DNA of 41,317 nt from Patescibacteria group bacterium. Lineage in GTDB: Bacteria > Patescibacteriota > UBA1384 > XYA2-FULL-43-10 > 1-14-0-10-43-13. A program made the position numbers and the translations under genes. Under the pieces are notes generated by a model. It saw only the letters and a program-made list of their open reading frames with translations, had not been told where the DNA came from and did no database searches. Each line of letters opens with the position of its first letter. Position 1 is the stretch's first letter. Positions 13,761 to 14,901 of this stretch are shown here, in pieces. The stretch covers positions 1-41,317 of the forward strand of contig JBAYVE010000011.1 of assembly GCA_041674765.1 (NCBI GenBank). Reading direction: 5' to 3'.

Positions 13761-14901
13761 TTACTCTTTCATCCAAAACCAGTACTGGTTCAATAATTCT
13801 TGCTTTAATTTATAGGAATTTGCATGGGACAAGACTCCTAAAAATGAGTTCAGTGTTTGCTTCAGTTTATCTTCGTCAATCTGCCCAGCTTTATGTTTGG
13901 CTACTTTTTGTTTTAGTTTCTTGAAAATCCTGTGTTTTGTTTTTGTCCTCAATTGCCGGTGGTGTGGCAACACAACATAGCCCAAGAAATCAATTCCATG
14001 GCTAACTTTGCCAATTGATATCTTGTTTGGATGAAGGTTGAGCTTTAGACTTTCACCTAAAAACGACCGAATATCCCCAAGTGTTTGCTCAAGATAATCT
14101 TTGTTATCGGAAAGAACGATAAAATCATCAGCGTAGCGAATATAGTACTTAATCTTAAGTTTATGCTTTACAAACTGATCCAGCTCGTTCATATAAATAT
14201 TTGCAAAGAGCTGACTGGTTAAGTTGCCAATCGGAATACCATGGTTATCAGCGGCCGAAGGCCGCAATCTCTCTCTCTCTCTCTCTCTCTCTCTCGGTTG
14301 GTGCCGCAAAAAGTGAAAGTTGTGGGCACTCGGTTTTGACATAGAAACTTTGAATTATCTCAGTCAGCAGCCAGAGTAGATCTGGATCATCAACCTTTCT
14401 CTTGATGAGTTTGAGTAGTATTTCATGATCAACCGAATCGAAGAACTTCTTGATGTCACATTTTAGGGCGAAACAAGGTCTTGAATAATTTCCGCTGACC
14501 TTTCGGATAAATCCCTTTAATCGATCAACTGCCCTATGGGTACCTTTGTCTATGCGGCAAGAGAACGAGTCAAAAATAAAACCGCTATCAAATATTGGGT
14601 AAAGCACTCCGAATATTGCATGGTGAACGACTCTGTCCTTAACAGTAGCTTTATGTATATGCCTAACTTTTGGATCTGTGATAAAAAATGAGGTATATTG
14701 ATCATGATGATATTGTTTGGTGCTTAATTCATCATGCAAAGCAAAGATTTTATCTTCTAGACCGCGCTCAAATACTTGTACATCGTGTTTTCTGCGTTTA
14801 CCCAGTCTAAACTCATGCCAGCTGACAAACAAATTTTCTAAACTAACTATTCTTTTAAAGAGGTTTTCATGAATTTTCAAGATGACGCTCCGATCGTGCA
14901 A
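13761..14901 (-). pseudogene. DGR-type reverse transcriptase, reading frame broken inside a (CT)13 tract (two ORFs 14248..14901 and 13761..14342)
   Basis: The N-terminal ORF has RT motifs (FENL, DRVVHHAIF, CDIKKFFDSVDH). The C-terminal ORF has GIPIGNLTSQLFANIYMNELD (the DGR-type I/L-GxxxSQ variant of QGxxxSP) and RYADDFIV (YADD). Both translations run through RERERERE across the CT repeat. The start is TTG at 14901 or 14880. Confidence 0.85.
14269..14295. repeat. (CT)13C dinucleotide microsatellite inside the RT gene, next to a GC palindrome GCGGCCGAAGGCCGC (14251-14265)
   Basis: Counted directly. The two RT ORFs differ in frame so that +1 CT unit (or -2 units) fuses them. Confidence 0.9.

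Follow-up and report, generated by a model that had tools for sequence, protein, structure and literature searches.

A conserved dinucleotide repeat splits the reverse transcriptase gene of Patescibacteria diversity-generating retroelements and may act as a contingency switch

Two described systems bear most closely on the locus reported here. In Helicobacter pylori, sabA carries a perfect CT/GA repeat in the 5' part of its coding sequence, as do babA/B, sabB, oipA and hopZ, and in sabA an allele with seven CT units is on whereas one with eight is off (PMC4081817). The diversity-generating retroelement (DGR) of Bordetella phage BPP-1 combines a reverse transcriptase (RT) with an Avd partner, adenine-specific differences between a template repeat (TR) and a variable repeat (VR), and a VR at the 3' end of the target gene. 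Features of both meet in a DGR on contig JBAYVE010000011.1 of an uncultured Patescibacteria group bacterium (assembly GCA_041674765.1), the whole 41,317-bp stretch of which was analysed and is here called the window. The RT gene of this DGR contains a perfect (GA)n microsatellite, read as (CT)n on the forward strand, across which the two halves of the enzyme are encoded in different frames. As in the H. pylori repeats, a single unit flips the frame, and the position of the tract is conserved while its length varies, so that the intragenic CT tract of sabA may be regarded as the closest precedent. In contrast to those loci, the gene that would be switched is a DGR RT, itself a diversity generator, rather than a surface protein or methyltransferase; the tract lies mid-gene, in a loop between catalytic motifs, rather than near the 5' end; and it belongs to uncultured Patescibacteria, in which a G-N-A mini-hairpin often stands beside it and most sampled alleles are OFF. 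The BPP-1 enzyme (bRT), for its part, has about four residues where some 30, with (RE)n among them, are inserted in the window RT, and its avd gene isn't inverted as in the window, where the layout is the B3 architecture typical of DGRs from the candidate phyla radiation (CPR) and attributed to 90% of them by Wu et al. (PMC5758913). The split tract is one case of a widespread conserved module and not a single curiosity. We read it, with a probability of roughly 0.6, as a conserved hypermutable contingency repeat that would toggle the DGR by slipped-strand mispairing, the window locus being in the OFF state.

Tandem Repeats Finder delimits the tract as a perfect dinucleotide repeat at 14268/14269-14295 (period 2, 14.0 copies, 100% matches), and our own script found no other dinucleotide repeat of at least five units in the window. 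(GA)n encodes (RE)n in every frame and leaves all three frames open. The open reading frames (ORFs) of the N- and C-terminal halves overlap across it, the C-half lying in the +1 frame relative to the N-half, and both translate it as RERERE (junction peptides ...TERERE... and ...RLRPSAADNHGIPIGN). Gene callers begin the N-half at a TTG codon (14880), giving a 210-aa protein (P0011/P0121) that ends in ...TEREREREREIAAFGR followed by two stops, while the C-half continues into motif 4 as GIPIGNLTSQLFAN. When the tract is edited in silico, one added unit restores a continuous RT of 380 aa, as do the loss of two units (378 aa) and the gain of four (382 aa); all other lengths from -4 to +4 units leave the frame broken. 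The break falls between palm motifs A and B and is the sole lesion of the gene, for both halves are full-length and hold all catalytic motifs, with no further stop or frameshift. The first-pass annotation, made from the sequence alone, had described a CT tract at 14269-14295 splitting the RT frame, its reading as RERERE in both ORFs, the fusion of these into an RT of about 380 aa by the gain of one unit or the loss of two, and a perfect GC palindrome next to the repeat. The sequence, the ORF list, Tandem Repeats Finder and the script agree on the first point, the ORF list and the two Pfam halves on the second, and the in silico lengths and the mapped palindrome (see the table) bear out the others.

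The conservation of the tract was surveyed with a pattern of (GA)8, a gap of 20-50 nt and the codons for PIGNLT, placing the repeat just upstream of RT motif 4. Matches were obtained in at least 120 metagenome contigs and in 110 contigs of GTDB species representatives (at least 230 loci), nearly all of them from Patescibacteria, including Saccharibacteria, Berkel-, Wolfe- and Paceibacterota and others, with tracts of 16-71 nt (median 25). Viral contigs contained no match to this pattern, though the window locus sits in a prophage-like region. Within 1.42 Mb around 230 of the RT genes, 236 dinucleotide repeats of at least seven units lie at the RT site and two elsewhere, so that the presence of a tract at this site is not a matter of chance. 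Two of the surveyed contigs hold further long repeats: in L124 a (GA)n tract with a GG interruption (4285-4304) likewise splits a second DGR-type RT, and in L107 a (GA)16 repeat (920-951) falls in a region without a recognisable RT. After the loci had been deduplicated by flanking sequence and limited to those with full flanks, 145 populations remained, in which the frames of the two halves were assigned by ORF walking and by tblastn with concordant results. The halves are in frame in 28 populations (19%); the C-half is in the +1 frame in 72 (50%), which like the window need one more unit, and in the -1 frame in 45 (31%).

This distribution bears on the choice that the first-pass annotation had left between slipped-strand switching and an error of sequencing or assembly in the repeat length, the true tract being in frame. 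Dinucleotide repeats do stutter in PCR-based libraries, and here a single unit would suffice. Against this, the JGI/NCBI contig is matched at 100% identity over 6,585 bp by a MEGAHIT contig (ENA ERZ27247358, k141_1278584, 94.6 kb) with the same 13 units and an identical VR, an independent assembly that may nevertheless come from the same reads; one length recurs in 16 Berkelbacteria contigs from different samples and assemblers; and stutter can account neither for 81% wrong calls in both directions nor for a difference of five units between two contigs described below (L132 and L173). As the split is also the majority state of the 145 populations, a wrong repeat length is very improbable, and it is the switching option that gains support, from the conserved site, the length polymorphism in orthologous populations, the labile frame and the lack of decay.

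The tract is far more mutable than the sequence around it. Of 21 flank-identical groups of contigs, seven are polymorphic for the length of the repeat, and in several pairs of contigs little or nothing else differs: L052 and L170 (20 and 18 nt) have no mismatch in 3,660 nt elsewhere, L065 and L188 (27 and 25 nt) none in 4,108 nt, L191 and L206 (29 and 27 nt) none in 4,863 nt, and L132 and L173 (21 and 31 nt, or five units) a single one in 2,285 nt. Near-identical pairs of this kind include transitions between ON and OFF as well as between the two OFF frames. In a Berkelbacteria cluster whose RT is 63% identical to that of the window, a 374-aa protein is encoded on at least 18 contigs, and the 90% cluster also contains truncated members of 219 and 213 aa. 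Here the tract measures 27 nt (13 units, in frame) in the 16 contigs already mentioned, which come from many samples, 25 nt (12 units) in L002 and 23 nt (11 units) in L003, and outside the tract the DNA of the latter two is identical to that of the full-length contigs. On a longer scale, the frame state is that of the nearest relative in all five pairs with less than 5% protein divergence, in 60% of those with 5-15% and in 42% of those above 15% (chance 38%); beyond about 15% protein divergence it is random with respect to phylogeny. As to the VR, three OFF contigs (L020, L046 and L127) have one in common, from which the ON contig L036 differs at 20 positions, in a comparison of genomes that are about 2% diverged overall (L020 and L036 are 97.8% identical, with RT tracts of 18 nt, out of frame, and 20 nt, in frame). 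The 20 differences between L020 and L036 are concentrated in the VR (L020 8463-8587), and a further divergent block occupies L020 9401-9814; L020 also carries a 108-nt tandem duplication at 4711-4926.

A perfect intragenic repeat whose unit is not a multiple of three, conserved in position and variable in length, is what characterizes a contingency locus, and alleles of both states in otherwise identical genomes are found in the orthologous populations. Taken together, the conserved site and the perfection of the tract, the variation of its length in otherwise identical genomes, the lability of the frame among relatives and the absence of decay are most simply explained by a switch. Under the proposed mechanism the tract would gain or lose whole GA units by slipped-strand mispairing, presumably during DNA replication, and since the unit is 2 nt, each slip would move the C-half into or out of frame with the N-half, turning mutagenic retrohoming ON or OFF in individual lineages. 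The 13-unit consensus allele of the window would then be an OFF allele, presumably making no active RT, that becomes ON through the gain of one unit or the loss of two. OFF appears to be the preferred resting state, one that probably freezes a useful VR sequence and spares the cost of continuous mutagenesis.

If the split simply marked a dead gene, in which slippage had inactivated the RT and left the DGR defunct with a frozen VR, decay would be expected to follow, and signs of it were sought in the halves and in the repeats. An N-half open over 520 nt or more is present in 94% of the in-frame loci, 96% of those in the +1 class and 91% of those in the -1 class, and the median length of the C-half is equal among the three classes. 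A TR/VR pair with at least 75% of mismatches at adenines, counted where at least 2.5 kb of upstream sequence is available, accompanies 75%, 77% and 87% of the in-frame, +1 and -1 loci, respectively, and neither the mean number of mismatches (15-18) nor the adenine fraction (0.93-0.94) differs among the classes. The DGRs to which the split RTs belong are thus not in decay. In the window the broken consensus frame of two assemblies, the lack of a near-identical in-frame copy on record and one TR/VR mismatch within the repeat at a non-adenine position speak for a pseudogene, but Avd, TR and VR are intact and the RT shows none of the scattered lesions of a decaying gene; the same single lesion recurs at the same site in 117 of the 145 populations, again with partner elements kept and without extra decay relative to in-frame relatives, and it can be reverted by one unit. 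A plain pseudogene is for these reasons an improbable explanation.

The common relatives of the window RT are 349 aa long and lack the insertion, whereas in a subclade at 56-67% identity 15-40 extra residues, often (RE)n with differing n, stand between "QLxLF" and "GIPIGN". The profile match to bRT (8ub7_A) correspondingly falls into two stretches (bRT residues 4-171 and 176-323), whose flanking segments are only about four residues apart. In an AlphaFold model of the repaired RT (mean predicted local distance difference test score, pLDDT, of 80) residues 189-222 are of low confidence. Its absence from bRT and the 349-aa relatives and its low confidence in the model place the tract in what appears to be a dispensable surface loop between RT motifs 3 and 4. 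The RE repeat, for which conservation and insertion had been posed as alternatives, lies in an insertion absent from bRT and the 349-aa proteins, and is kept at no fewer than 230 Patescibacteria loci.

A two-piece enzyme might also be imagined, the two ORFs being translated separately and their products assembling into an active RT. Both halves are conserved, and the C-frame of the window has an ATG (14342) at its opening, 47 nt ahead of the tract. No conserved C-frame start follows the tract, however, where in-frame ATGs are present in 14 of 37 cases (about the third expected by chance), and upstream of it the C-frame is open over anything from 0 to 231 nt. With 19% of relatives fused, otherwise identical genomes flipping between fused and split, and a break that separates palm motifs A and B, a split enzyme is scarcely credible.

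Alongside the tract, some loci carry a second feature, a hairpin. The 28 nt that follow it fold with a mean of -5.9 kcal/mol against -2.1 in other segments of the same genes (Mann-Whitney p = 1e-35) and have a GC content of 53% against 39%; under shuffle-controlled folding the mean z is -0.94, with p <= 0.05 in 23% of loci as opposed to 2% for a control segment. A perfect stem of at least 5 bp is found at 32% of loci and in 14% of control segments, usually starting between -2 and +4 nt of the tract end. Hairpins with a T-N-C triloop on the coding strand number 26 (TTC 16, TCC 5, TGC 5), all of which start between -3 and +4 nt of the tract end and 23 of which are closed by C·G; their density is 5.43 per kb just after the tract and 0.35 per kb elsewhere, a 15-fold difference (Poisson p = 4e-22), while coding-strand G-N-A loops and other triloops show no enrichment after the tract. 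Neither the frequency nor the strength of the hairpin differs among the frame classes. A stem enclosing the tract through pairing of its two flanks is weakly supported (mean z -0.44, 8% below -2), and the 40 nt upstream have little excess structure (mean z -0.2). Across related loci the hairpin is retained in differing sequence and differing frames, as GCAGCC-TTC-GGCTGC read AAFG in L249, GCGGCC-TTC-GGCCGC read RPSAA in L250 and in the window, and ATTCGGCC-TAC-GGCCGAAT read IRPTAE in L251. Compensatory changes and reading in different frames point to a constraint on the nucleic acid rather than the protein.

On the (CT)n strand the window hairpin has the loop GAA in a CCGAAGG core, and across loci the loop is a C·G-closed G-N-A (GAA, GGA or GCA), as in the DNA mini-hairpins d(GCGAAGC) and CCGAAGG. 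Triloops of this type form extraordinarily stable DNA mini-hairpins, the sole such type among the 64 triloops, and CCGAAGG is the cited example from the ssiA priming signal (PMC13037366). The known mini-hairpins lie at sites of single-strand replication or transcription initiation in phages and plasmids, whereas the hairpin predicted here stands beside an intragenic microsatellite, a setting from which, to our knowledge, none has been described. The strand-specific, DNA-type loop signature suggests, by its match to this motif, that the hairpin acts in single-stranded DNA, which fits replication slippage better than a stimulator in the mRNA. In a switch of the kind proposed, it would probably form in the single strand and either promote or delimit slippage.

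A number of observations weigh against a contingency switch, or at least against its simplest form. The fraction of OFF alleles, 81%, is high if the RT is needed, and could mean that OFF alleles are expressed by recoding. No in-frame copy of the window RT at 90% identity or more was found among 5.8 billion protein clusters, and no full-length protein in that database is more than 67% identical to it, so that no ON allele of the window population is on record. In the Berkelbacteria, the VR is invariant at the consensus level among the 16 in-frame contigs, an ON genotype without visible diversification. Some of the length differences between contigs could reflect stutter or the choice of an assembler where coverage is low, L002 and L003 being contigs of 2 kb and 4.5 kb. 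No more than 18-32% of loci have the hairpin, about a fifth, the window included, carrying one that abuts the tract, and the survey covered only tracts of at least eight perfect units. In-frame alleles fall below the neutral third (binomial p = 1.3e-4; 15 of 79 for GTDB only, p = 0.004) and the +1 class is commoner than the -1 class (72 against 45, p = 0.016), in statistics that ignore phylogenetic non-independence and shared ancestry. Both the surplus of OFF alleles and that of the class one unit short of ON would fit a contraction-biased repeat together with selection against continuous RT expression.

Recoding, in which out-of-frame alleles yield some full-length RT because the ribosome slips by one repeat unit or RNA polymerase adds or drops a GA, would account for these proportions differently. 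A -2 slip would suit window-type alleles and a +2 slip the other class, AGA and GAG both re-pairing perfectly after a 2-nt shift, and the length of the tract and the 3' hairpin would set a low dose of RT, as frameshifting limits IS3-type transposases. In transposases of the IS1 and IS3 families, orfA and orfB are joined through a programmed -1 ribosomal frameshift at an X XXY YYZ heptamer, in a fixed -1 relationship. The likeness is one of function, a potentially harmful DNA-rearranging enzyme whose activity is kept rare by its encoding in two overlapping frames with a slip site followed by a stem-loop, but the RT tract shows all three frame relationships, permits ±2 re-pairing only and varies in genomic length. 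Full-length products may also arise from ORFs broken at slippery runs, as in endosymbiont genes whose poly(A)-tract frameshifts are rescued by polymerase infidelity and in arterivirus nsp2TF, where -2 frameshifting takes place at G GUU UUU with a protein stimulator; these use homopolymers or the G GUU UUU site, whereas the RT tract is a dinucleotide repeat. By analogy, a -2 slip with full tRNA re-pairing at the RT tract is mechanistically possible.

Several features of the survey agree with recoding. The out-of-frame genes are intact and make up 81% of the total, with in-frame alleles below one third; the largest class is the one that requires a -2 slip; no frame of (GA)n contains a stop, and each encodes RE; a stable hairpin at the 3' end of the tract would occupy the position of a frameshift stimulator if slippage occurred in the last codons of the tract; and an N-frame stop directly follows the tract in 25 of 73 loci of the +1 class. 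Once conditioned on the type of flank, however, the enrichment of such stops is weak (31 of 48, p = 0.03). The TAA flank of the tract was also considered as a nucleic-acid motif and rejected as such: in the C frame it is read GAT-AAA (Asp-Lys) in 43 of 55 cases and is probably a protein-level feature.

Other evidence runs counter to a dedicated site. Where programmed ribosomal frameshifting normally keeps one fixed frame relationship, all three occur here, in close relatives and between identical genomes alike, and the 3' structure tracks frame class in neither strength nor frequency. The loop bias, T-N-C on the mRNA strand and G-N-A on the other, fits a DNA hairpin motif and no known RNA one. 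Programmed transcriptional slippage takes place at homopolymers of some 9 nt and upwards, frequently accompanied by a 5' hairpin in the nascent RNA, and stimulators of such slippage, in the work of Penno and colleagues from 2015, reportedly lie 5' of the slippery run; the RT tract is a dinucleotide repeat, and the 40 nt before it, as noted, are little structured. Recoding at (GA)n has no precedent known to us, and the literature searched contains none. That the repeat and hairpin form a dedicated recoding or dosage device, OFF alleles giving a small, tunable amount of full-length RT with changes in unit number as a rheostat, accordingly seems unlikely, though clearly less so than a dead or a two-piece enzyme. 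Switching and recoding are not mutually exclusive. Were recoding true, the tract would represent a new class of frameshift site, the first natural bacterial dinucleotide ±2 recoding site and the first intrinsic regulator of a DGR.

The tract is embedded in a complete DGR, with RT, bAvd, TR and a VR in a target gene, whose features are listed below.

Table 1. Features of the DGR and its RT microsatellite in the window
Feature	Position	Strand	Length or sequence	Remarks
RT C-terminal half	13761-14342	-	193 aa	second half of Pfam RVT_1; motif 4, YADD, thumb
DGR-type RT motif 4	14211-14240	-	GIPIGNLTSQ	downstream anchor of the variable insertion holding the tract
RT N-terminal half	14248-14901	-	217 aa	first half of Pfam RVT_1; fingers and palm motifs 1-3
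GC palindrome	14251-14265	-	GCGGCCGAAGGCCGC (GCGGCC-TTC-GGCCGC)	6-bp stem, 3-nt loop; 3 nt (AAT) 3' of the tract
Microsatellite	14269-14295	-	(GA)13G on the coding strand, (CT)13C on the + strand	perfect
bAvd accessory protein	14869-15219	+		PF22296, 70.7 bits, E 1.7e-19; NF033474 DivGenRetAVD, 88.5 bits, cut-off 80
Template repeat (TR)	15226-15350	-
Target gene	15686-16375	-	229 aa
Variable repeat (VR)	15707-15831	-		3' end of the target gene

The closest solved structure to the window RT is that of Bordetella bRT (8ub7_A, profile match with E 1.4e-62), its homologs are Patescibacteria RTs adjoining bAvd, and the (I/L)GxxxSQ signature of the DGR clade is present as GIPIGNLTSQLFAN in the C-half of the ORF split at the tract. 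TR and VR are 88% identical, with 13 of their 15 mismatches at TR adenines. The other two are a T to A change within the repeat and a T to G change close to its 3' end, and the final ~25 bases common to both repeats are GC-rich and adenine-free, resembling a boundary of the initiation-of-mutagenic-homing (IMH) type. The target protein has no match in Pfam, NCBIfam or PHROG. The bAvd and RT ORFs overlap head to head by up to 33 nt (14869-14901), or 12 nt when counted from the annotated start at 14880, which requires their promoters and starts to be interleaved, and L002-L018, L249 and L250 are organized in this way as well. Rfam gave no match at E <= 1 over 13000-16500. The segment 15001-17000, with the target gene and the TR region, has a GC content of 0.46-0.51 against 0.36-0.41 in its flanks.

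To the left of the RT gene, the last 32 nt of a tRNA-Gly(tcc) gene (11978-12052) are exactly duplicated 63 nt downstream (12084-12115), adjoining a large serine recombinase/integrase (12315-13673), in what looks like an att-type duplication left by integration; the window contains no third copy of this 32-nt end. Chromosomal transporters (a P-type ATPase, Nramp and a Na/H exchanger) lie to the left of the tRNA gene, and on the other side of the DGR the segment 17447-20763 encodes a terminase large subunit (PHROG 38, E 8e-69), a terminase small subunit and a ParB-N6/N4 methyltransferase. With integrase and tRNA-Gly on one side and phage terminases on the other, the DGR appears to stand at the integrase end of a prophage-like element. 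The Berkelbacteria ortholog, by contrast, is flanked by chromosomal genes (IF3, L20 and bactofilin). Further along the window, a 1,336-aa ORF (21050-25060) without a match in Pfam or PHROG precedes three tRNA genes (His-gtg, Arg-tcg and Arg-tct) at 26561-27163.

Phase variation through simple sequence repeats and DGRs are each well known, while a conserved microsatellite switch in an RT gene, with a G-N-A mini-hairpin and a majority of OFF alleles, is a combination that we have not found before. The literature searched, which included DGR surveys and had the main paper on CPR DGRs (Paul et al. 2017) outside its coverage, is silent on repeats and frameshifts in the RT genes of DGRs, that of BPP-1 included, and a prior mention of such a switch cannot be fully excluded. 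A practical consequence concerns annotation. Pipelines that demand an intact RT ORF would miss or mislabel most of these elements, and as the N-terminal RT fragment of the window, deposited at NCBI in a contig of a "Patescibacteria group bacterium" metagenome-assembled genome, is annotated there as a "hypothetical protein", censuses of CPR DGRs are probably undercounts. The G-N-A mini-hairpin at the repeat, in turn, offers a natural test case for the effect of a stable single-stranded DNA structure on microsatellite slippage. Of the natural protein diversifiers DGRs are the most extreme, and little is known of how cells restrain or time them. If the contingency reading is true, the RT repeat would be a stochastic master switch over a hypermutation machine, by which lineages could first vary a surface or binding protein and afterwards fix a useful variant, and such a switch is especially plausible for the ultrasmall, episymbiotic Patescibacteria, in which DGRs are very abundant.

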